In this document: positions 8,811 through 62,212 of the stretch, piece after piece
Layout of the letters: each line of letters starts with the position of its first letter
Position numbering within the stretch: position 1 is the stretch's first letter
Assembly: GCA_963702035.1 (NCBI GenBank)
Contig: OY969700.1
Span: 2,301,915 to 2,365,914 of the forward strand
Direction: 5' to 3'
Length of the DNA stretch: 64,000 nucleotides
From: an uncultured Solirubrobacterales bacterium
GTDB lineage: Bacteria; Actinomycetota; Thermoleophilia; Solirubrobacterales; 70-9
Translations under genes and position numbers: made by a program
The notes under the pieces: model-generated
Database searches by the model: none
The model's input: the letters and a program-made list of their open reading frames with translations, nothing else
What the model was told of the DNA's origin: nothing

Positions 8811-10217
8811 TCAGCCGGAGACCTGTTCGCCCAGCGTCTCGAGCATCTCCTCGACGCGGACGAACTTCACTCGGGGGCGGCCGTGGGGCTCGCCACGGCC
8901 GACCTCGGCCTGGTCGATCGCCTGCCAGTCTTCGAAGCTGACGAAGCGGATGCCGCGCTCGGCGAGCAGGTCGTCGACCGCGGATGCCTCGGGGTTGGCG
9001 GGGCTGAGCAGGGTCTGCGAGCCGACGTCGGCGAGCAGGTGTTGGACCGTCTCCAGGGCATCTTTCTTGTTGGTGCCGATCACTCCGGAGGGACCGCGCT
9101 TGATCCAGCCCGCGGTGTAGTGGCCGACCTTGTGGCCGGAGTCGTGGGAGTCGAGCACGCGACCGCCCTCGTTGAGGATCAGGCCGCGCTTCTCGTCGAA
9201 GGGCACGCCCTCGATCGGGATCCCGGTGTAGCCGACCGAGCGCAGGACCAGGCCGCACTCGAGCTCTTCGCGCTCGCCCGTGTCCTTGGCGCGCAGGCTG
9301 CCGCCGTCCTCGACCAGCTCGTTGCGGCCGACGACGATCGATTCGACCTTGCCCTCGCCCCTGATCTCGACCGGGGAGGCGAGGAAGCGCAGAACGATCC
9401 GCTGCTTCTTGGCCTCGGGCTCGCGCTGGGAGAACTCGCGCAGCGTCTCGACGTTGACGCGGGTCGTCTTGTCGGCCTCGTCGGACTCGAGGAAGGCCGT
9501 GCTGGCCGGGTCGAGCTCGACCTCGGCCGGGTCGACGATCACGTCGGCGTCCTCCATCTCGCCGAGCTCCCTGATCTCGGGGTTGGTGAAGGCCGCCTGC
9601 ACCGGCCCGCGGCGGCCGAGCACGACGATCTCGCGGATCCGCTTGCGGTCGAGCAGCTCGATCGCGTGGTCGGCGGTGTCGGTCTGGCGCAGCTCGTGGT
9701 CGGTCAGGGCGAGCATCCGGGCGACGTCCATCGCCACGTTGCCGTTGCCGATCACCACCGCGCGCTCGCCGGCGAGGTCGAACTCCTCGTCGCAGTAGTC
9801 GGGGTGCGCGTTGTACCAGCCGACGAAGGAGGTGGCGGCGTGGCTGCCGGGCAGATCCTCGCCGGGAATGCCGAGCCGGCGGTCGGTCTCACAGCCGACC
9901 GTGAAGACGATCGCGTGGTAGAGCCGCTCGAGATCCTCGACCTCGATGTCATGGCCGACCTTGACGTTGCCGAAGAAGCGAAAGCCGTCGCGCGCCGCGG
10001 TTTTTTCGTAGACACGGGTCACCGACTTGATCTTCGGGTGATCCGGGGCGACGCCGCCGCGGACGAGGCCGAACGGCGTCGGCAGACGGTCGAAGAGGTC
10101 TACCTGGGCGTGCGTGTCGGCGTCCTTGAGGATGTGCTCGGCGGCGTAGAAGCCGGACGGGCCGGCGCCGACGATCGCGACGCGGATGGGGTTCTCTTCG
10201 GTTCCGATCTGGGTCAT
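8811..10217 (-). CDS. fprA: FprA-type ferredoxin-NADP(+) reductase (adrenodoxin-reductase-like)
   Basis: 468 aa: IRVAIVGAGPSGFYAAEHIL...FDRLPTPFGLVRGGVAPDHPKIK. Confidence 0.85.
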   Translation of the reverse strand: MTQIGTEENPIRVAIVGAGPSGFYAAEHILKDADTHAQVDLFDRLPTPFGLVRGGVAPDHPKIKSVTRVYEKTAARDGFRFFGNVKVGHDIEVEDLERLYHAIVFTVGCETDRRLGIPGEDLPGSHAATSFVGWYNAHPDYCDEEFDLAGERAVVIGNGNVAMDVARMLALTDHELRQTDTADHAIELLDRKRIREIVVLGRRGPVQAAFTNPEIRELGEMEDADVIVDPAEVELDPASTAFLESDEADKTTRVNVETLREFSQREPEAKKQRIVLRFLASPVEIRGEGKVESIVVGRNELVEDGGSLRAKDTGEREELECGLVLRSVGYTGIPIEGVPFDEKRGLILNEGGRVLDSHDSGHKVGHYTAGWIKRGPSGVIGTNKKDALETVQHLLADVGSQTLLSPANPEASAVDDLLAERGIRFVSFEDWQAIDQAEVGRGEPHGRPRVKFVRVEEMLETLGEQVSG

Positions 10218-10855: not shown

Positions 10856-11554
10856 TTATCGGTCATATACCGGTACGGCTGAAGCCGTGCCGTCGAGCGC
10901 GTCGAGCGCCTTGTTCACCGACATCGCGACGCAGGTGAAGATCGGCGTCTCGCGCTCCGTGTACTCGCTCGACTCGGTCGGGCGCAGCTCGTTGACCAGG
11001 TCGAGGAACATCCCCGGGTCGTCGCCCTCGAAGCAGACGACGAACTCCTGGTCGTCGAGCCCGAAGGAGTAGGTGGTGTTGATCGTGATCTCCGGGTAGC
11101 GGCGGCCGACCTCGATATGGCTTTTCATGATCCGCCCGCGCTCCTCCGCCGGCAGCCCGTACCAGCGGCGCTGCTTGACCATCGGGTAGAGGAAGAGGTA
11201 CTTGCGCTCGGAGACGCAGATCTCCGGCCGCGCCCCCTCCTCGCTGTAGGGGGAGCGTTTGGTCATCGAGAGGAAGGAGTGCGGCGTCTCCGCCCACTTC
11301 GCCAGCCCGCTCTGCCCGAGCACGACGTGGAAGGTGTGCAGATCGTCGAGGTTGGGGCTCTGCGAGAGGATGAGGAGGTCGACGTCGCCGCGCGTGCCTA
11401 TGGTTGAGTAGGCGCGCAGAGAGCGGTCGAGGGCGAAATCGTCGCAAGCCGCAAGGAACTCCTGCTTGTCGGCGGCGCGCAGTTCGGCGTCGCGGCGGCG
11501 CCACTCGGGGTCGATCTTGAAGAAAGTGAACTTGGCGAACGTGCGGTCGGCCAT
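10856..11554 (-). CDS. hemQ: Chlorite-dismutase-family coproheme decarboxylase (HemQ/ChdC)
   Basis: From ATG 11554: MADRTFAKFTFFKIDPEWRR...YLFLYPMVKQRRWYGLPAEERGRIMKSH. Confidence 0.85.
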   Translation of the reverse strand: MADRTFAKFTFFKIDPEWRRRDAELRAADKQEFLAACDDFALDRSLRAYSTIGTRGDVDLLILSQSPNLDDLHTFHVVLGQSGLAKWAETPHSFLSMTKRSPYSEEGARPEICVSERKYLFLYPMVKQRRWYGLPAEERGRIMKSHIEVGRRYPEITINTTYSFGLDDQEFVVCFEGDDPGMFLDLVNELRPTESSEYTERETPIFTCVAMSVNKALDALDGTASAVPVYDR

Positions 11555-11579
11555 TCGGGTCACGATAGCGCCGGCGGCG

Positions 11580-12908
11580 TTGGTGGCGGCTGCGATCGCG
11601 CTGTTGCTGGGCCTGCACGCGGCGGGCGCGGGCTTCCAGGGCAACCCCCACGCCGTCGTGCGCGACGCGGCGCCCGGTGGGCGGCTCTGGGAAGTGACTG
11701 ACCGCCGCGCCCCGGTGATCGGCGTGACGCTGCTCGTCTGGCTGGGGGCGTTTGCCGCCGCGATTGCTGCCGAACGCCTGTCTCTCCGTTCCGGTGTGCC
11801 TTTTGCCGCCTATGTGAGCAAAAAGCACACCGGAAGGGTCGGGGCGCGGCTGCTGGCGCTCTCGCTCGTCTACCTGCCGCTGCTCTGCCTGGTCGCGGCG
11901 GCGCTGGAGCCGAGCCTCGGCGCCGAACGGCTGCTGATCATGCTCGGCTCGCCCGCGCTGGCGGCGGTGACGCTGGCGAGCCTCGGCGGCTACCGGGCGC
12001 TCGCCTTCGCCTGCGCCGCGACGTCGCTGGCCTACGCGATTGACCTGATCGGCGGCTCGGCTCTGACCCAGCTCTCGATCGTCGGCCCCAACCCCGCCGG
12101 CGGGCACCGCTTCTACGGGATCGGCAACGAGCTCGAGGCCTGCCTGGTGGTCCTGATCCTGGTCGGCACCGGTGCGGCGCTGTCGAGTTTTGCCGTGCCA
12201 GGGCACGTACAAACTCCGCAGCGGCGCGTGGCCGACCGGGGGCCCGCTGCGTTTCTCGTCGTCGCTGCGATCTTCACCTTCGTCTTCGCTTATGGGCGCT
12301 ACGGGGCGGATGTCGGGGCGGCGATCAGCCTGCCGCTGGGTGCCGCGGTGGTCGCCGCGCTGCTCGCTGAGCGCCGCGACCTGGCGCTGCTTGCCTTCCT
12401 GCTGCCGATTCCCGCCCTGGTGCTGCTCTCCGCCGCCGACCTGATCACGAGCGCCAACGCTCACCTGACCAAGACCGTGCTCGACGCGAAGAGCGGCGGC
12501 GACGTCCTCGCCGTCGTCGGGCACCGTCTCAGCGAGACGGTGAGCAGCTTCGGTCGCCCCACCCTCATCGCCGGCCTGCCGGTGGTCATCGTCGCCGCCG
12601 CGATCGCCTGGCTGCGCCGCGACCGCCTGGCGACTTGGCTGAGCGGCCTCCCACCGATGCGCGCCGGCATGCTCGGTGCCCTCGCCGCGACCCTCGTCGG
12701 CACCGCCGCCAACGACTCCGGCGCCCTGCTGCTCGAGATCGGCGGCGCCTATCTACTGGTCTTCATCGGCTTCGCCTGGGCCGAAGGGACGCGCGTGGCG
12801 CGGCGCCCATCGGCGTCCTCGCTCGCTCGCGTGCAGAGCACGCCACGCTCCCTGCGTCCTCATATGGAGAGCTCCTCGTCAAGTGCCCAGGGTCGATCGG
12901 GCCCCTGA
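11580..12908 (+). CDS. Polytopic membrane protein of unknown family. Start is uncertain and the C-terminus reads into repeat F1-c and IS110 copy 2.
   Basis: Many TM segments (FYGIGNELEACLVVLILVGTG..). The last ~35 codons are encoded by F1-c and IS sequence. Carries two in-frame hairpin insertions. Confidence 0.45.
   Translation: MVAAAIALLLGLHAAGAGFQGNPHAVVRDAAPGGRLWEVTDRRAPVIGVTLLVWLGAFAAAIAAERLSLRSGVPFAAYVSKKHTGRVGARLLALSLVYLPLLCLVAAALEPSLGAERLLIMLGSPALAAVTLASLGGYRALAFACAATSLAYAIDLIGGSALTQLSIVGPNPAGGHRFYGIGNELEACLVVLILVGTGAALSSFAVPGHVQTPQRRVADRGPAAFLVVAAIFTFVFAYGRYGADVGAAISLPLGAAVVAALLAERRDLALLAFLLPIPALVLLSAADLITSANAHLTKTVLDAKSGGDVLAVVGHRLSETVSSFGRPTLIAGLPVVIVAAAIAWLRRDRLATWLSGLPPMRAGMLGALAATLVGTAANDSGALLLEIGGAYLLVFIGFAWAEGTRVARRPSASSLARVQSTPRSLRPHMESSSSSAQGRSGP
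11789..11835. repeat. H1 hairpin (TTCCGGTGYGCCTT..AAGGCRCACCGGAA type) inside a CDS
   Basis: TTCCGGTGTGCCTTTT-15 nt-AAAAAGCACACCGGAA. Sister copy at 22585-22631. Confidence 0.7.
12185..12216. repeat. H2 hairpin (TTTG..GCACGTACAAA type) inside a CDS, imperfect
   Basis: GAGTTTTGCCGTGCC-AGG-GCACGTACAAACTC. Shares GCACGTACAAA with 47892-47919. Confidence 0.5.
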
Positions 12909-26187: not shown

Positions 26188-26197
26188 CGATCACGAG

Positions 26198-26272
26198 TTC
26201 CGGGGGGAGGATTCGAACCCAACCGCCTCTTGGACCAAAACCAAGCGTGCTAGCCAATTACACCACCCCGGA
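26198..26272 (-). tRNA. tRNA-Gln(UUG)-like gene with an irregular T arm
   Basis: The reverse complement reads TCCGGGGTGGTGTAATTGGCTAGCACGCTTGGTTTTGGTCCAAGAGGCGGTTGGGTTCGAATCCTCCCCCCGGAA. Acceptor, D and anticodon arms are good. The T stem TTGGG/CCTCC has 2 mismatches plus one G-U pair. Confidence 0.6.
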
Positions 26273-54015: not shown

Positions 54016-54101
54016 GCCCGGGTGGCGAAACTGGCAAAAGCGGCGCACTTAAAATGCGCTGCCCCTTTGGGGGCTTGCGGGTTCGAGTCCCGCCCCGGGC
54101 A
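54016..54101 (+). tRNA. tRNA-Leu(UAA)
   Basis: GCCCGGG acceptor, anticodon arm GCGCA-CTTAAAA-TGCGC, long variable arm GCCCC-TTT-GGGGC, T arm GCGGG-TTCGAGT-CCCGC. The D stem is weak. Confidence 0.85.
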
Positions 54102-54111
54102 CTCCCGGCGC

Positions 54112-57311: not shown

Positions 57312-57385
<74 letters not shown>

Positions 57386-57462
57386 TTTCAGAGGTCTTCA
57401 CCTTTGACCTCCACTCATCTTCACGTTTCAACCGGACGCACCGCGCTTCGCGGTGGTGTCCG

Positions 57463-57554
57463 ACGGCCATCGGCTCTCCCCAGGGGCGGCCATTGGACTT
57501 CCCCGCCCGCGGCCACCGTTTCTCCCCACCGACGGCCATCGGTTCTCCCCACGT
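57463..57554 (+). repeat. Four tandem 23-bp direct repeats (RCGGCCAYYGNNYTYCCCCR) inside the left end of the element
   Basis: Units start at 57463, 57486, 57509 and 57532. No spacers between them. Confidence 0.8.
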
Positions 57555-57586
57555 GACCCCTCGGTGACCGCTTCGGCAAGGGTAGG

Positions 57587-59092
57587 TCAGGGCGGCCCGT
57601 TTGCCGCGCCGATCAGCTCGCCCGCGCTCTTCCGGCGGCGCTTGCGCCGCCTGGGTGGCAGCCCCTCGGCGGCCCGCCGCTCCTCCTCGGCCTCTCGCGC
57701 GGCGAAGGCATCGGCGACGCGCAGGTTGCGGGCGACGAAGACGCCGGCGGCAAACAGCGCGATCGGTGCCAGGCCCGCCAGCCGGCACCAGCCGCGGGAG
57801 ATGTCGTTTGTGGCCGGGTCCTTGACCGTCGCGTAGGCGCGCTCGGCGGCCGAGCGCCGCGCGTAGGAGCGACGGTGCTCCGGCGAGGGGTAGTCGTGCT
57901 TCTGCGCGGTCTTCGCGTTGACCGACGGGGGTACCGTGATCGTGCGCTGGGAGCAGCAGGTGGGCGGGTGCTCGGGCGGGTCTGCCACTTCGGGACGGGT
58001 GTGCTCGAGCGCCATCGACTCGGGGCGCAGGGGGCAGCGCAGCTTGCCTTGGGCGGCGGGACAGCCGACGCGGTGGTAGCCGTCTGCGTCATAGCCGGCG
58101 ATCGGCGCGAGCCGGTGGCGGCGGAGCTCGGCCGCCTTGGTGTCGTGGGCGACCGTCTCGGCCTCGCTGGCGCCGCGGTGAAGCGGCCCCAGCTCCAGCA
58201 GCGCGGCCGGGGTGGCCGGGCAGTAGAGCGCGCCGCCCGCGAGGGTCGCCCCCATGTGGGTCCCCTTGCGCCCGCGGTCGTGGGGGTGGAGGTCCTGAAT
58301 GAGGCGGGCGCCGAGGCGGCGGACGGGCAGCGCCCACGTCTCCGCCACCCGGTGGGCGTAGCCCGAGTCGGCGAGGACGTCGCCGAGCTCGATCCCGGCG
58401 GCGGCCATCCGCCCCAGCACCCCCACCAGCGCCGCGGGCGGGTCGGCCTTGCAGCTCGTGAGCCCGATGCGGCGCACCAGCTCCGCCACCGTGGGACCGC
58501 GCTCCTCCTTGACGGCCGTGACGACCTGCAGGTAGTAGCCGAAGAAGACCTCGTCACGCTCGCCGGGCGAGTTGCCGCGCCGGTGTCCCCAGGAGGCCTC
58601 CGGGTCCGCGCAGTCCCCGCCGCCCTTCGGCGGTGGACAGGAGAACGTCTCCAGATCTGTCCAGTCCACGGCATAGGAGTTCGAGGCCGGCTCCCCGCAG
58701 ACCTCGACGCTCGCCTCCAACAGGGCGTCGAGGATCTCCGAGAGCGCCTCGCAGGGCTCCCCGTCGGGCTCGGCCTTGGCCAGCGCCCTCGCCACGAGCC
58801 CGAGGGTCCGCTCCACCTGGCGGTAGGTGAGCACGTGGGGGCCCGACTTCCACTCGGCGATCACGCCGAGCCGCCTCTGGTCGGCCTCGGGCAGGCAGAG
58901 CAGCGCCTCGTGCACCCGGCTCAGGTGCGCGGGGCGCCCGTCGGCGGCGACCAGGAGCATCCCCACCAGCAGCGTGCGCACCCGAAGCTGGCGCCGCCGC
59001 GCCCCCGCCGGCAGCAGGGCCTCGATGCGCGGGGCGACGCCCGCGCGGTCGACGATCGCCTCAAGGCGCCGAAGCTTCGTCTCAGCCTGCAC
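57587..59092 (-). CDS. DDE transposase with an IS4-type Y-(2)-R-(3)-E-(6)-K signature
   Basis: From GTG 59092 (which overlaps the upstream stop): AVDWTDLETF, VLADSGYA, and SYARRSAAERAYATVK, which fits YREK spacing exactly. Confidence 0.75.
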   Translation of the reverse strand: MQAETKLRRLEAIVDRAGVAPRIEALLPAGARRRQLRVRTLLVGMLLVAADGRPAHLSRVHEALLCLPEADQRRLGVIAEWKSGPHVLTYRQVERTLGLVARALAKAEPDGEPCEALSEILDALLEASVEVCGEPASNSYAVDWTDLETFSCPPPKGGGDCADPEASWGHRRGNSPGERDEVFFGYYLQVVTAVKEERGPTVAELVRRIGLTSCKADPPAALVGVLGRMAAAGIELGDVLADSGYAHRVAETWALPVRRLGARLIQDLHPHDRGRKGTHMGATLAGGALYCPATPAALLELGPLHRGASEAETVAHDTKAAELRRHRLAPIAGYDADGYHRVGCPAAQGKLRCPLRPESMALEHTRPEVADPPEHPPTCCSQRTITVPPSVNAKTAQKHDYPSPEHRRSYARRSAAERAYATVKDPATNDISRGWCRLAGLAPIALFAAGVFVARNLRVADAFAAREAEEERRAAEGLPPRRRKRRRKSAGELIGAANGPP

Positions 59093-59992
59093 GGCCTCCT
59101 CCGAGCAATGCGACGGCCGTCTCCTCCTCCACCTCCGGGAGCCCGGCCACCAGATCGCCGAGCCGCTGCGAACAGCGCAACCCGGCCGCGTCCATGAACG
59201 CCCGCAGGCCGATCGACTCCGCGCACCCGCAAAGCCAGGTCGCCCGCAGCCGCCCCGGCTCAAGGCGCGCCAGCCCGGCGTCCGCGCACAGCGCCGCCCC
59301 CAGCGCGGCGCTGAGGTTGCGCCGGTCGGCCTCCCGCCCCCCGAGCAGGAACCCCCGCCCGGCGAAGCGGGCGGCCTCCTCAAGGGGGGGCTGGAAGCGG
59401 GCCGCCACCGGCACCGCCCGCGCCCTGCGCCCCCAGACACTGACCACCAGTCCGCCCGAGCGCCGCTTGACGTCATGCCCGCGCAGGTGGCGCAGCTCGG
59501 CGCCGACCAGGCCCGCCCCCGCCCCAGGCAGATCAGCGCCGTGGCGCGCATCCGCCGCGCCTCGGTGGGCTGGGCGGCGGCGAGGCGCAGGTAGCCCTCG
59601 ATCTCTCCCTCCCCATAGGGGGCCTTGGCGCGCTCGCGGGGCAGCGGCGCCGGCTCGGGCCGCGGAGCCGCCCGATGGGCGCGGGCGAGCGCCCGCAGGT
59701 TGGTCCTCAGCGTGCGCCGCGTCGCCGCCGAGACCGCCGCGCAGCCGGTGAGGACGAAGCGCTCGATCGTCGCCTCTGCCAGCAGCGTCTCGGCGCAGAG
59801 CTCCATCCCCACCGACTCGCCGAAGGCGGCCAGCCGCCCGGCGGCGTAGAGCAGGGCCTTGGCCCTCTCGCGCGTGCGCGGCGCGGCCCGCGCCGCCGCG
59901 GAGCGGGCGAAGCCCGCCGCCTCGGGGGAGAGGGAGGCGGGGGCGTAGGCGCGGATCGCCGCCGCCGCGAGGTCAGCCGCTCGGGGACCCAT
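59082..59992 (-). pseudogene. Tyrosine-recombinase-like (phage-integrase-fold) ORF interrupted by a 1-nt frameshift in a G run near 59508-59513
   Basis: Frame A reads MGPRAADL...RMRATALICLG. Frame B continues AGAGLVGAELRHLRGHDVKRRSGGLVVSVWGRRARAVPV...RLRATWL. The join needs one extra G in CTGGGGCGGGGG. Confidence 0.55.
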
Positions 59993-59996
59993 GGTA

Positions 59997-60020
59997 TCCG
60001 ACAGTAGCGCTACTATCGGA
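59997..60020. promoter_or_regulatory. 24-bp palindrome in the 56-bp divergent promoter gap (candidate operator)
   Basis: TCCGACAGTAGC|GCTACTATCGGA; 11 of 12 positions are symmetric. Confidence 0.5.
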
Positions 60021-60048
60021 CAGACCGACGTAGGATCGCGAGTCACCC

Positions 60049-60372
60049 ATGAACGAGACCGCCGAGACCCGCCTGCGCGAGCTCACCGCCGAGCTCGCCG
60101 AGATCGGCTTCGCCCTGCCGGGGACGATCAACGTGGCGATGAATCGCTGCGGCAAGCCCAACTGCGCCTGCAAGGCCGACCCGCCCAAGCTGCACGGCCC
60201 CTACGTCACCTGGACGCGCAAGGTCGGGGGCAAGACCGTCACCCGCCGCCTCTCGGCCGAGCAGTTGGAGCGCTACCGGCCCTGGTTCGATAACCGCCGC
60301 CGGCTGCGCGAGCTCACCGCAGAGCTCGAGGCGCTCTCGCTCGAGGTCGCCGAGCGAGCCGAGGGCTGGTAG
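60049..60372 (+). CDS. DUF6788-family protein
   Basis: 107 aa: CGKPNCACKADPPKLHGPYVTWTRKVGGKTVTRRL. Confidence 0.65.
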   Translation: MNETAETRLRELTAELAEIGFALPGTINVAMNRCGKPNCACKADPPKLHGPYVTWTRKVGGKTVTRRLSAEQLERYRPWFDNRRRLRELTAELEALSLEVAERAEGW

Positions 60373-60489
60373 CCCGCTGAATCGGGCGCCGGAGCCGATC
60401 GGCGCCGGCGCTGAGCACCCGGTCGGTGTGGTCTCGCGCCGCTTAACGTGTGATCGCTGCGAAAGCGGTCCACGCGAAACCGCATCAGC

Positions 60490-61335
60490 ATGCGGTTGAT
60501 CGCAAACGTGAAGACCTCGTATCACGAAAGCCCTGCAGATCGCGGGGTTTTCGTCTTTCTGGAGTGCAGACAGAAGGGTGCAAAATCGGCCCTGGGGCAA
60601 GCCCTGGGGCAAGGTGAGGTCAAGGGAGGTCGTTTTGGGCCTTGCCCAGCGAGCGCTGACCGCAGCCGTCGCTACGATCGAGAGCAGCGGAAACCGGAGT
60701 TTCGAAGGAAGGCTCTGACCAAGGCTCACGCGAGACAGAAGGCTCATCTCGGGGCAGACGATCTCAGGCTTGCACGCGCCATCTTCACGCTGCGCGAGAC
60801 CGCTGGCTATCTCGACGTTCCCAAGTCGAACATTCAGCGCTGGGCTCGGCCGCCGGAAGCCAAGCATCCGTTGATCACCTGCTTTCCGCCGCATGGCCGG
60901 GAGGCTGAGGTCCTCTTCGACTACGCGAACAAGCGTGGCGAGCGCGAGGTAATGGATCTGGTCGTCGTCCGTACCCAGCAGCGCCAATTCTCCGGGGTTG
61001 TGAATGACTATCTGAAGCGCATCCATTACGGAGGCGACGGCTGGGCGGACTCCGTGCGACTGCCGACTTACGGCAACGCGAAAGTGGTCGTCAACCCGAG
61101 GGTCGCATTTGGCCTCCCGATCGTCGCCCACGGCGGCGCTCGCGTAGAGGATCTCGTCGACCGCTTCCAAGCTGGCGACTCCGTCGCCGAGATCGCAATG
61201 GACTTCAGCGTCCCTCCCGATGAGGTCGAGGACGTGATCCGGCTCGCAACCCGGACGGCAGCCTGGGCCGAGGATGCTGCGCCATGTCTTTGTACGGCCC
61301 AGGGTTTTCTTGGTCCCGCCGGGAAAGCCGCGTAA
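60490..61335 (+). CDS. DUF433-type (antitoxin-like) protein. The native N-terminus is unclear and it is possibly a remnant.
   Basis: HTH-like IFTLRETAGYLDVPKSNIQRWAR and a C-terminal DUF433 segment (VVNPRVAFGLPIVAHGGARVEDLVDRFQAGDSVAEIA). The only in-frame start upstream of the HTH lies inside or next to IRR of the transposon. Confidence 0.45.
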   Translation: MRLIANVKTSYHESPADRGVFVFLECRQKGAKSALGQALGQGEVKGGRFGPCPASADRSRRYDREQRKPEFRRKALTKAHARQKAHLGADDLRLARAIFTLRETAGYLDVPKSNIQRWARPPEAKHPLITCFPPHGREAEVLFDYANKRGEREVMDLVVVRTQQRQFSGVVNDYLKRIHYGGDGWADSVRLPTYGNAKVVVNPRVAFGLPIVAHGGARVEDLVDRFQAGDSVAEIAMDFSVPPDEVEDVIRLATRTAAWAEDAAPCLCTAQGFLGPAGKAA

Positions 61336-61577: not shown

Positions 61578-61961
61578 TCAGGCGCGGATCACGTCCACGT
61601 CCTCGAACGAGGAGAAGTCCGTGTCCTGGGTGAGCACCGCGGCTCCATGGCGCATCGCGGTTGCCGCAATCCAGGTGTCGTGGCGGCGGAGGCGTCGGCC
61701 GCGAGATCTCTCGGCCGATGCGATGCGCGCAAAGCAGCTCGCGGTCTCTGCGTCGATTGGAAGCAGGGGATACGTGGCCTGGACGCGCGAGAGGGTGGAG
61801 AGCCGCATGGCCCGTGCATCTGGGTCGGTGGCGCGCAACACGCCCAGCTCCAGCTCGGCGGCGGTGATCACCGAAACGGCGATCTGCTCGGGAAGCTCGC
61901 CAAGCTCGCGACCGGTCTCTTGGGCGATGAAGATCGAGGTGTCGGCGATTGCCCGACTCAA
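61578..61961 (-). CDS. vapC: PIN-domain toxin VapC
   Basis: IADTSIFIA...ITAAELELG...DTWIAATAMRHGAAVLTQDTDF. Confidence 0.85.
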   Translation of the reverse strand: MSRAIADTSIFIAQETGRELGELPEQIAVSVITAAELELGVLRATDPDARAMRLSTLSRVQATYPLLPIDAETASCFARIASAERSRGRRLRRHDTWIAATAMRHGAAVLTQDTDFSSFEDVDVIRA

Positions 61962-62212
61962 TCGTCGAGCTCGGCGCCGCGGACGTCGGCGAGATCGTCC
62001 AGCAGGCCGGTGTCGGCGGGCGCCTCGGTCACGATGCGGCGCAACTCACTGGCCGGGACCCAGGGATCGCGATCCTGGACGTGGGGAAGGATGTCGGCGA
62101 CCGGACGACGGTTGACCGTCAGCGTCAGTCGTTCGCCCGCTTCCAGCTCGGAGACAACGGCCGAGGTGGAATTCCTCAGCTCCCGGATCGAAACGGTGCG
62201 CGCCATGTGCAC
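61958..62212 (-). CDS. Phd/YefM-type antitoxin
   Basis: TVSIRELRNSTSAVVSELEAGERLTLTVNRRPVA. Overlaps vapC by 4 nt. Confidence 0.8.
   Translation of the reverse strand: MHMARTVSIRELRNSTSAVVSELEAGERLTLTVNRRPVADILPHVQDRDPWVPASELRRIVTEAPADTGLLDDLADVRGAELDD

Follow-up and report, generated by a model that had tools for sequence, protein, structure and literature searches.

A three-gene insertion sequence family at the 3′ ends of tRNA genes and its putative recombinase-derived target selector

Why does a 3.1-kb segment that encodes both a DDE transposase and an integrase-like protein begin five base pairs after an initiator tRNA gene? The segment lies in a 64,000-nucleotide stretch of DNA from an uncultured Solirubrobacterales bacterium (GenBank assembly GCA_963702035.1, contig OY969700.1, positions 2,301,915–2,365,914), which we refer to at its full length as the window. 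A preliminary description of this stretch had proposed a mobile element with a non-standard set of three open reading frames (ORFs), the third belonging to the DUF6788 family. Having compared the segment with related loci, we consider it highly probable that positions 57391–60518 hold one copy of a three-gene insertion sequence (IS) whose DDE transposition is directed to the 3′ ends of tRNA genes. Its relatives are discrete transposons with 5-bp target duplications, and they occupy tRNA ends in a fixed register and a fixed orientation. The three proteins can be assigned roles with differing confidence, and we argue below that the probable target selector is a descendant of a tyrosine recombinase.

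Boundaries, copies and empty sites

Scanning a single genome for each species, we obtained 234 related stretches, with several loci per genome, and kept 79 loci; their hosts were nearly all Solirubrobacterales, Streptosporangiaceae and Acidimicrobiales from soil and peat metagenome assemblies. Nucleotide homology between the window IS and loci L001–L006, L010, L015 and L040 ran from the first base of GAGGTCTTCAC to the last base of GTGAAGACCTC, exactly the limits that the preliminary description had proposed, and delimited a complete element of 3,128 bp (57391–60518) whose recombinase-like and transposase genes are on the minus strand. The ends are 16-bp terminal inverted repeats found family-wide: in the window the right, tRNA-proximal repeat, GAGGTCTTCACCTTTG, occupies 57391–57406, and the left repeat, CAAACGTGAAGACCTC, occupies 60503–60518. 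The identity of 15/16 reported for them earlier was confirmed (GAGGTCTTCACCTTTG against GAGGTCTTCACGTTTG, the reverse complement of 60503–60518). With S at the variable base, the terminal-repeat pattern had only two sites in the 64-kb window, namely the two IS ends, and with up to three mismatches allowed it had five matches against 0.54 expected. The 11-bp termini were kept in the family even at 55–60% protein identity.

The two ends are unequal. Alignment of the right ends of 22 diverse elements revealed two CAAACGTGAA boxes at a spacing of ~22 bp throughout the family; in the window the second, subterminal copy of the repeat core, TCTTCACGTTTC, lies at 57418–57429 and is found at the right end only. 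The left end has one CAAACGTGAA-type box together with a conserved CCACA-GTTAAGCG-CCACA motif, 65–95 nt inside. In the window this left-end subterminal motif spans 60426–60452 and reads CACACGTTAAGCGGCGCGAGACCACAC on the transposase strand, with two CCACA boxes flanking GTTAAGCG; comparison of the left ends of 22 elements found it kept in most of them, down to 59–62% transposase identity. Such inequality fits a fixed orientation of insertion.

Copies of the element are numerous. Transposase homologues formed more than 6,000 clusters at 90% identity, and recombinase-like homologues formed ~2,800 clusters at 50% identity (2,806 by a profile search of 1.84 billion representatives); viral contigs held no relatives, and plasmids held relatives only at 28% identity. 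Many transposase-bearing metagenome contigs measured 3.1–3.3 kb, and several spanned exactly terminus to terminus, the appearance expected of a repeat that collapsed during assembly. In one assembled genome, seven copies were 0–2 nt apart over 3,125 bp, from which we conclude that transposition there was recent. A database protein identical to the window transposase at 500/501 residues suggests a second IS copy elsewhere in the source genome. Among the 61 copies for which both flanks were available, 32 had a perfect 5-bp target duplication (40 if one extra junction base was allowed), and a further 10 matched at 4/5. These copies thus supply the definition of the ends and of the duplication that the preliminary description had left to a search for further copies. 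We found no published description of the IS family in the full-text literature, a search that ISfinder lies outside, and this is apparently an abundant, undescribed family of soil Actinomycetota. Three near-identical copies in one genome (L017, L018 and L020) have a common in-frame stop in the transposase gene (6001–7503); perhaps these are defective copies that owe their mobilisation to proteins acting in trans, or perhaps the stop is subject to readthrough.

At the window locus the target gene was left intact. The initiator tRNA-Met gene (CAT anticodon; 57312–57385, plus strand; ARAGORN, and Rfam RF00005 at 63.9 bits) shows the initiator features of a C1×U72 mismatch and three G-C pairs (GGG/CCC) closing the anticodon stem, and it is separated from the IS by TTTCA at 57386–57390, the tRNA-proximal target copy, in agreement with the earlier statement that the element starts 5 bp after the tRNA. 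Using the neighbouring Ppx/GppA gene as an anchor, we retrieved 80 metagenome loci, ~50 of which keep ppx followed by tRNA-fMet. Relatives with a related flank have empty sites, as the preliminary description had anticipated: there the tRNA ends in A|TTTCACGAAAGCCC(T/C)GCAAATCGCGGGGTTTTCGT, a hairpin with a 13-bp stem and a folding energy of about −21 kcal/mol, which lies directly 3′ of tRNA-fMet (in L087, L088, L104, L108, L127, L130 and L139) and is probably its terminator. The window junctions read A|TTTCA|IS|GTATC|ACGAAAGCCCTGCAGATCGCGGGGTTTTCGT, in which discriminator A57385 with TTTCA reproduces the A|TTTCA of the empty site and the hairpin (ACGAAAGCCCTGC-AGATC-GCGGGGTTTTCGT, 60524–60554, plus strand, −20.8 kcal/mol by RNAfold) has been displaced 3.1 kb by the IS. 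Comparison of the window with the empty sites therefore indicates that the insertion is lineage-specific and was placed between the tRNA and the hairpin. A strict promoter and terminator scan of the region called none, the hairpin at 60524–60554 included, and an exact-pattern search of metagenomes for the empty site returned no match. The element thus has what defines an insertion sequence: it is a discrete unit bounded by terminal inverted repeats, it occurs in multiple copies, and both target duplications and empty sites are found.

The tRNA-fMet loci also held sequences of other kinds. In L084, L097 and L125, TGGCCTTA(T/A)TGG directly follows tRNA-fMet in place of the usual hairpin, and in L105 and L138 there are 2–3.4 kb between ppx and tRNA-fMet; further mobile elements probably use this tRNA gene too.

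All ~70 elements examined, with transposase identities as low as 55%, have the gene trio of DUF6788, recombinase-like protein and transposase in one and the same order and orientation, which speaks against the independent occurrence of the three ORFs that the preliminary description had named as a refutation. The transposase gene of the window (57587–59092, minus strand, GTG start) is intact and encodes 501 amino acids. Across 33 homologues D143 (in DWTD), D242-S-G244-Y245, Y410, R413, E417 and K424 were invariant; when relatives of 26–31% identity were added, D143, G244, Y245, Y410, R413 and E417 were still invariant and D242 was kept in at least 90%. These residues would provide a catalytic triad of D143, D242 and E417, with Y410-(2)-R413-(3)-E417-(6)-K424 as an IS4-type signature, and their invariance upholds the motif that had been noted in the single sequence. 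Matches to described families were weak: PF01609 (DDE_Tnp_1) matched 9 of the 33 homologues and PF13751 (DDE_Tnp_1_6) matched 11, and the NCBIfam IS1182 model gave E values of 7.5e-6 to 1.9e-8, with 25 bits against a cut-off of 270. We take this weak database support as the mark of a deep branch of the DDE_Tnp_1 clan, outside the named families.

The window copy is genuine but damaged: its transposase gene and both ends are intact, its recombinase-like gene is frameshifted, its DUF6788 gene is truncated and its target duplication is degenerate. The distal copy of the duplication, located at 60519–60524 by the empty-site comparison, reads either as GTATC, matching ATTTC at 3/5, or as TATCA, matching TTTCA at 4/5 with one extra base; the preliminary description was correct that this copy has no clear duplication, and the 5-bp duplications are found in its relatives. 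We considered whether the duplication had been lost by recombination between copies and rejected this explanation, as the far flank is the original sequence downstream of tRNA-fMet. The recombinase-like gene (59082–59992, minus strand) would encode 303 amino acids when repaired, and is split into two frames by a 1-nt deletion in a G run at ~59522–59526, which we mapped against three intact relatives. The protein is intact (~300–320 aa) in most relatives, including P0121–P0123, which are 93–95% identical to that of the window. The deletion could be a real inactivation or a homopolymer sequencing error, the latter being conceivable because many such assemblies are made from long reads. The DUF6788 gene (60049–60372, plus strand) encodes 107 amino acids and ends 13 codons short at a premature TAG, where a 96%-identical relative has Ala, with an in-frame tail running on to 60414. 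Because of the frameshift and the truncation, the window copy is probably non-autonomous, and if it is still mobile it probably relies on proteins from another copy.

Register, orientation and range of the tRNA targets

The preliminary description had drawn attention to the initiator tRNA; with the relatives in hand, tRNA adjacency turned out to define the family, and almost any tRNA can serve. The T-loop box GTTCGAATC, with up to two mismatches, lay 15–18 nt from the right end of the IS in 62 of 64 non-tandem copies and exactly 16 nt from it in 49. In a separate count over 40-nt flanks the motif was present in 56 of 61 copies, compared with 2.5% of random 40-nt windows, and we found no convincing case of it at the opposite IS end. 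In all loci the flank at the end downstream of the transposase gene reads as a reverse-complemented tRNA 3′ end; it is this IS end that faces the tRNA in every case, and the orientation is fixed. A distance of 16 nt puts the junction 4 nt past the discriminator base N73, so that the 5-bp duplication consists of N73 and four trailer bases and the tRNA is untouched. The extra base in the distal flank of the window copy places it among the ~15% of copies that lie 17 nt, not 16 nt, from the T-loop box.

Target tRNAs called by ARAGORN comprised at least 15 types (Ala, Phe, Arg, Lys, Pro, Ser, Tyr, Thr, Asp, Met, Leu, Val, Gln, Gly and Asn), and many other target flanks were tRNA 3′ fragments that end in or near the anticodon loop. 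Beside the occupied 3′ fragments of L003 and L036 lies a genuine tyrosine integrase gene (at 7805–9163 and 11163–12458, respectively), and because the integrase genes adjoin them we interpret such fragments as attachment-site remnants of integrated islands, at which the IS is often located. The L018 copy sits at a pseudo-site with little beyond the T-loop box, yet it has a perfect duplication. In the aligned targets, information content peaked over the T stem and loop, reached a moderate level at the acceptor end and was nil past the insertion point. L004, L036 and L045 contain head-to-tail tandems that share one 5-bp duplication, and adjacent copies are present also in L051, L055, L064 and L075; such tandems imply that an occupied site stays targetable and that what determines the target lies on the tRNA side. 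L083, a distant relative whose recombinase-like protein is ~34% identical, likewise abuts a tRNA 3′ fragment, and a search for its element ends yielded none that could be defined; four other distant contigs had too little length to reveal a target. The other tRNA genes of the window, those for Gln (26197–26272) and Leu (54016–54102), are unoccupied.

Which protein reads the tRNA gene

By profile comparison, the recombinase-like protein is homologous to the core-binding and catalytic domains found in the tyrosine recombinase superfamily. A diverse family profile (A4) matched the archaeal XerA structure 4a8e over the catalytic domain (E 4.2e-6), and when hhalign was used to compare it with three genuine integrases from the fetched loci, the probability was 88% and the E value 3e-6 (3.2e-6) over 217 columns; a shallow profile (A1) gave E 0.33 against the PDB and a probability of 2% against the local integrases. 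The fold therefore stood as the preliminary description had read it, as did the overlap of the gene's stop with the transposase start; the frameshift in the ORF had been overlooked. In the aligned register the catalytic positions are substituted: Arg-I by I/V/T/M, His-II by G, the His after Arg-II by A, and His/Trp-III by L/I/V. Arg-II (R250) is the sole catalytic residue kept, and no Tyr is conserved in the C-terminal 60 residues. The loss of the Tyr nucleophile, Arg-I and the His residues would leave a recombinase-fold protein that is catalytically dead across the family.

We propose that the three proteins divide the work of transposition as follows. The 501-aa protein would bind the terminal repeats (a single box on the left, two on the right) and would carry out cleavage and strand transfer. 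The dead descendant of a recombinase would keep its DNA-binding fold, read the DNA of the conserved T-arm and acceptor in tRNA genes, and position the transposase. The DUF6788 protein, with its Cys3-His motif, would be a regulator acting at a palindrome between the divergent genes. Tyrosine recombinases and integrases are classic readers of tRNA-gene attachment sites. Within the IS, the stop codon of the recombinase-like gene overlaps the start of the transposase gene (TCAGCCTGCAC, 59082–59092, TGA over GTG), an overlap that is kept across the family as ATGA, GTGA or 8–11 nt and that suggests that the two proteins act together. A precedent exists in Tn6022, where TnsF, an inactivated tyrosine recombinase, is an experimentally established target selector (PMC10293859). 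Ancestry, the coupling to the transposase and the analogy with TnsF make the recombinase-like protein the probable target selector. The more general picture, of a large IS superfamily in soil Actinomycetota in which a tyrosine integrase has been domesticated as a dead, general reader of tRNA genes that docks an IS4-like transposase for insertion exactly 4 nt beyond the discriminator base and in one orientation, we put forward tentatively, with slightly more doubt than confidence. Since insertion leaves the tRNA intact, the site is a safe haven. The tRNA would at the same time be separated from its terminator hairpin, and read-through from the tRNA promoter would run antisense to the transposase gene.

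Several observations weigh against this account. The window copy has no clean target duplication. Its transposase falls below the curated Pfam and NCBIfam cut-offs, without any Pfam match for the window protein, and a PDB search with the transposase profiles gave no sequence match. The AlphaFold2 model of the transposase is poor (pLDDT 53, from a shallow alignment) and its Foldseek matches are noise; the AlphaFold model of the recombinase-like protein is also poor (pLDDT 58, again from a shallow alignment), its N-terminal helical domain alone being confident, and the top five Foldseek matches, to IntI and XerA, were non-significant (E ~0.5). The intergenic palindrome is not conserved in sequence between subfamilies, is shorter in distant members and is undetectable in about half. 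The target-recognition role of the recombinase-like protein is drawn from analogy and ancestry. Finally, a distant relative on the complete plasmid pSCL3 of Streptomyces clavuligerus has the same pair of recombinase-like and transposase genes and is not beside a tRNA, from which it follows that the gene pair is not always a sign of tRNA targeting.

That pSCL3 relative could equally be cited for the strongest competing explanation, which is that the transposase itself reads the tRNA gene and the recombinase-like protein is an architectural or regulatory accessory, for example one that binds subterminal motifs within an asymmetric complex. Lambda Int arm binding and IHF, which help to assemble recombination complexes, offer a model for such a role. 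The unequal ends of the IS have further conserved motifs in subterminal position, for which a binding protein is needed, and the N-terminal helical region of the transposase (~130 aa), the part that was modelled confidently, could bind DNA. We nevertheless think this explanation unlikely, given the long-standing part of tyrosine recombinases as readers of tRNA attachment sites and the proven selector in Tn6022; the conserved stop/start overlap also suggests joint action, though it is compatible with either role.

In the reading that we favour, with the recombinase-like protein as selector, the DUF6788 protein would be a regulator. The assignment to PF20586 is strong (116.1 bits against a cut-off of 27.2, E 9.5e-34), and in relatives the protein has 120–124 amino acids with a conserved C-x4-C-x-C...H-G-P-Y motif; no mention of DUF6788 was found in the literature. 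Four nucleotides upstream of the recombinase-like start codon, between the divergent genes, lies a 24-bp near-perfect palindrome (TCCGACAGTAGC/GCTACTATCGGA, 59997–60020, 11/12 arm pairs). The preliminary description had thus placed a DUF6788 gene divergently across a palindrome with good reason, and had overlooked only its truncation. Perfect palindrome arms of 14 and 16 bp are found at the same intergenic place in L006 and L010, and the palindrome is a candidate operator. In the pSCL3 relative (L081, 254930–258095) and in L082, a 3.3-kb contig of the same layout, an XRE-type helix-turn-helix (HTH) gene (HTH_31) takes the divergent position of DUF6788, which argues for a regulatory role of the latter. 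The HTH_31 regulator of L081 accompanies a recombinase-like protein of 322 aa, which matches the family at an hhalign probability of 100%, and a transposase homologue of 579 aa; the two larger genes are annotated as 'hypothetical protein' and the small one as 'transcriptional regulator'. On a plasmid of the proteobacterium Polaromonas sp. P1-6 (L080, 3743–5318) a truncated DDE_Tnp_1 transposase has a DUF6788 gene as its divergent neighbour, with no recombinase-like homologue, and DUF6788 may be a general transposon-associated regulator.

Could the DUF6788 zinc-motif protein instead select the target, with the recombinase-like protein doing something else? All tRNA-associated members of the family have it, the pSCL3 relative, which does not adjoin a tRNA, has an HTH protein in its place, and in Polaromonas its neighbour is an unrelated DDE_Tnp_1 fragment. 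Against this, divergent transcription across a palindrome is the usual layout of an autoregulator, and L083 abuts its tRNA 3′ fragment with no DUF6788 match, either for its called genes in the precomputed Pfam listing or for two neighbouring ORFs that we scanned. We regard a selector role for DUF6788 as improbable.

Between the transposase stop and the tRNA-proximal end lie ~200 nt of non-coding DNA. In the window this tract includes four direct repeats of 23 bp (CGGCCATCGGnTCTCCCC..., 57464–57555), which are present where the preliminary description had seen them and are imperfect: repeat scans found overlapping two-unit copies 66–76% identical to the reference, and TRF reported 2.3 copies at 83%. 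As a general feature of the family these repeats were rejected, since the alignment of 22 right ends showed them in the closest subfamily only and missing from distant members. In most relatives (e.g. L012, L013, L025 and L033) the last ~200 nt before the terminal boxes are C/A-rich on the transposase strand, with G almost absent, a composition typical of Rho-loading sites, and such a tract might halt transposase transcripts before they run antisense into the tRNA gene.

RNA-guided transposition is known elsewhere, and a non-coding tract of this length leaves room for an element-encoded RNA that would guide insertion by pairing with the conserved T-arm. The chance of this is very small in our estimation, given that a search of the element interiors, with up to one mismatch allowed, gave neither a match nor a complement to the T-loop box in any of them and no internal tRNA mimic, that the tract differs between subfamilies (23-bp repeats versus the C/A-rich tract) and that no Rfam family matches it. 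Scarcely credible is a classical islet integrated by site-specific tyrosine recombination, as the tRNA adjacency and the JGI label 'integrase' for the recombinase-like ORF might suggest, or a set of chance repeats without mobility, given the absence of the Tyr nucleophile, Arg-I and both His residues in all members, the inverted-repeat ends and 5-bp duplications with no direct repeats of a tRNA segment, the targeting of at least 15 different tRNAs, and the existence of near-identical multi-copy elements and empty sites.

Comparison with known elements and the surroundings of the insertion sequence

Site-specific DDE insertion sequences are rare, and Tn7, like the IS described here, makes 5-bp duplications. 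The system most similar in logic is that of the Tn6022-type Tn7-like transposons with TnsF, in that both are DDE transposons of fixed site and orientation with an inactivated tyrosine-recombinase domain, whose role in our IS is proposed by analogy (PMC10293859). In contrast to Tn6022, which targets comM, the IS targets a whole gene class, the tRNAs; it lacks TnsA, TnsB, TnsC and TniQ/TnsD (none of its three ORFs has such a Pfam or NCBIfam match), it relies on one IS4/IS1182-like transposase within 3.1 kb and without cargo, and its recombinase-like protein of ~300 aa is without the zinc-finger N-terminus of TnsF. With elements of the IS4, IS1182 and IS5 type (the DDE_Tnp_1 clan) it shares the D-D-E residues with Y-(2)-R-(3)-E-(6)-K, a D-x-G-Y motif at the second Asp, and terminal inverted repeats and target duplications that are both short; it differs from them in having three genes rather than one and 3.1 kb rather than about 1.3–2 kb, and in being strictly site- and orientation-specific.

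Among bacterial insertion sequences, the nearest behavioural analogue that we found is the IS1202 family (ISAjo2 relatives), which inserts at dif/pdif sites at a fixed 5-bp distance and in a fixed orientation (PMC10132070). Both are DDE elements that keep a set distance and orientation relative to a short conserved site with a link to tyrosine recombinases, but IS1202 elements are 1.5 kb long, have a single gene and use the site of the host XerC/XerD, whereas our IS has its own dead recombinase homologue and tRNA targets.

In eukaryotes, Ty3 and the TRE elements of Dictyostelium are tRNA-directed retrotransposons that rely on Pol III transcription factors. The Dada DNA transposons of fish are tRNA-directed as well (PMC8869645). 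With all of these the IS has in common that it lands safely at multicopy tRNA genes, keeping a precise distance whatever the identity of the tRNA, and the most informative part of its targets, the T-loop box, corresponds to the B box of Pol III promoters. It differs in its bacterial hosts, in its unrelated proteins and in also occupying bare tRNA 3′ fragments.

Landing at a tRNA 3′ end with the tRNA preserved is likewise known from tRNA-integrating islands and phages, casposons and type V-K CRISPR-associated transposons. The islands integrate within one specific tRNA sequence and create direct repeats, in contrast to the 5-bp duplications that start at the discriminator base here and to a recombinase-like protein with no nucleophile. 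Type V-K elements depend on a guide RNA and on Tn7 machinery. Casposons use Cas1 (PMC4046053), and none of these systems is a small DDE IS that accepts most tRNAs. What is new for a DDE transposon with a target selector is the target class together with the compact gene set. The IS resembles Tn7-type elements in its dedicated target choice, and Ty3, TRE and Dada elements in its choice of tRNA genes, but lies outside all of these families. In the full-text literature we found no description of a bacterial DDE IS that accepts essentially any tRNA gene with single-nucleotide precision.

Because the source records label these genes 'hypothetical protein' or 'integrase', genome annotation overlooks a mobile element that is common, and an integrated island may be wrongly called in its place. 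At tRNA loci the IS parts the genes from their terminators and causes metagenome assemblies to break. Its three proteins make up a simple system in which to study the guidance of a transposase to a conserved feature of DNA and the reuse of recombinases as readers of DNA. If our reading is right, the IS would be a compact, protein-guided bacterial counterpart of the eukaryotic Pol III-directed elements, and TnsF would be joined by a second, independent example of a recombinase that became a transposon target selector. Were the selector understood, a 3-kb system that lands harmlessly beside tRNA genes could become a safe-site insertion tool for high-GC Gram-positive bacteria.

Two features of the window beyond the left end complete the picture of the locus. 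About 1 kb past the IS, on the minus strand, a PIN-domain toxin gene (61578–61961) and a Phd/YefM-type antitoxin gene (61958–62212) overlap at stop and start and form an ordinary type II toxin-antitoxin pair. Closer in, an ORF on the plus strand (60490–61335) begins within the left inverted repeat and has a DUF433 domain only at residues 199–251; its length is probably a high-GC artefact, the true start of the DUF433 gene lying well downstream of the IS.

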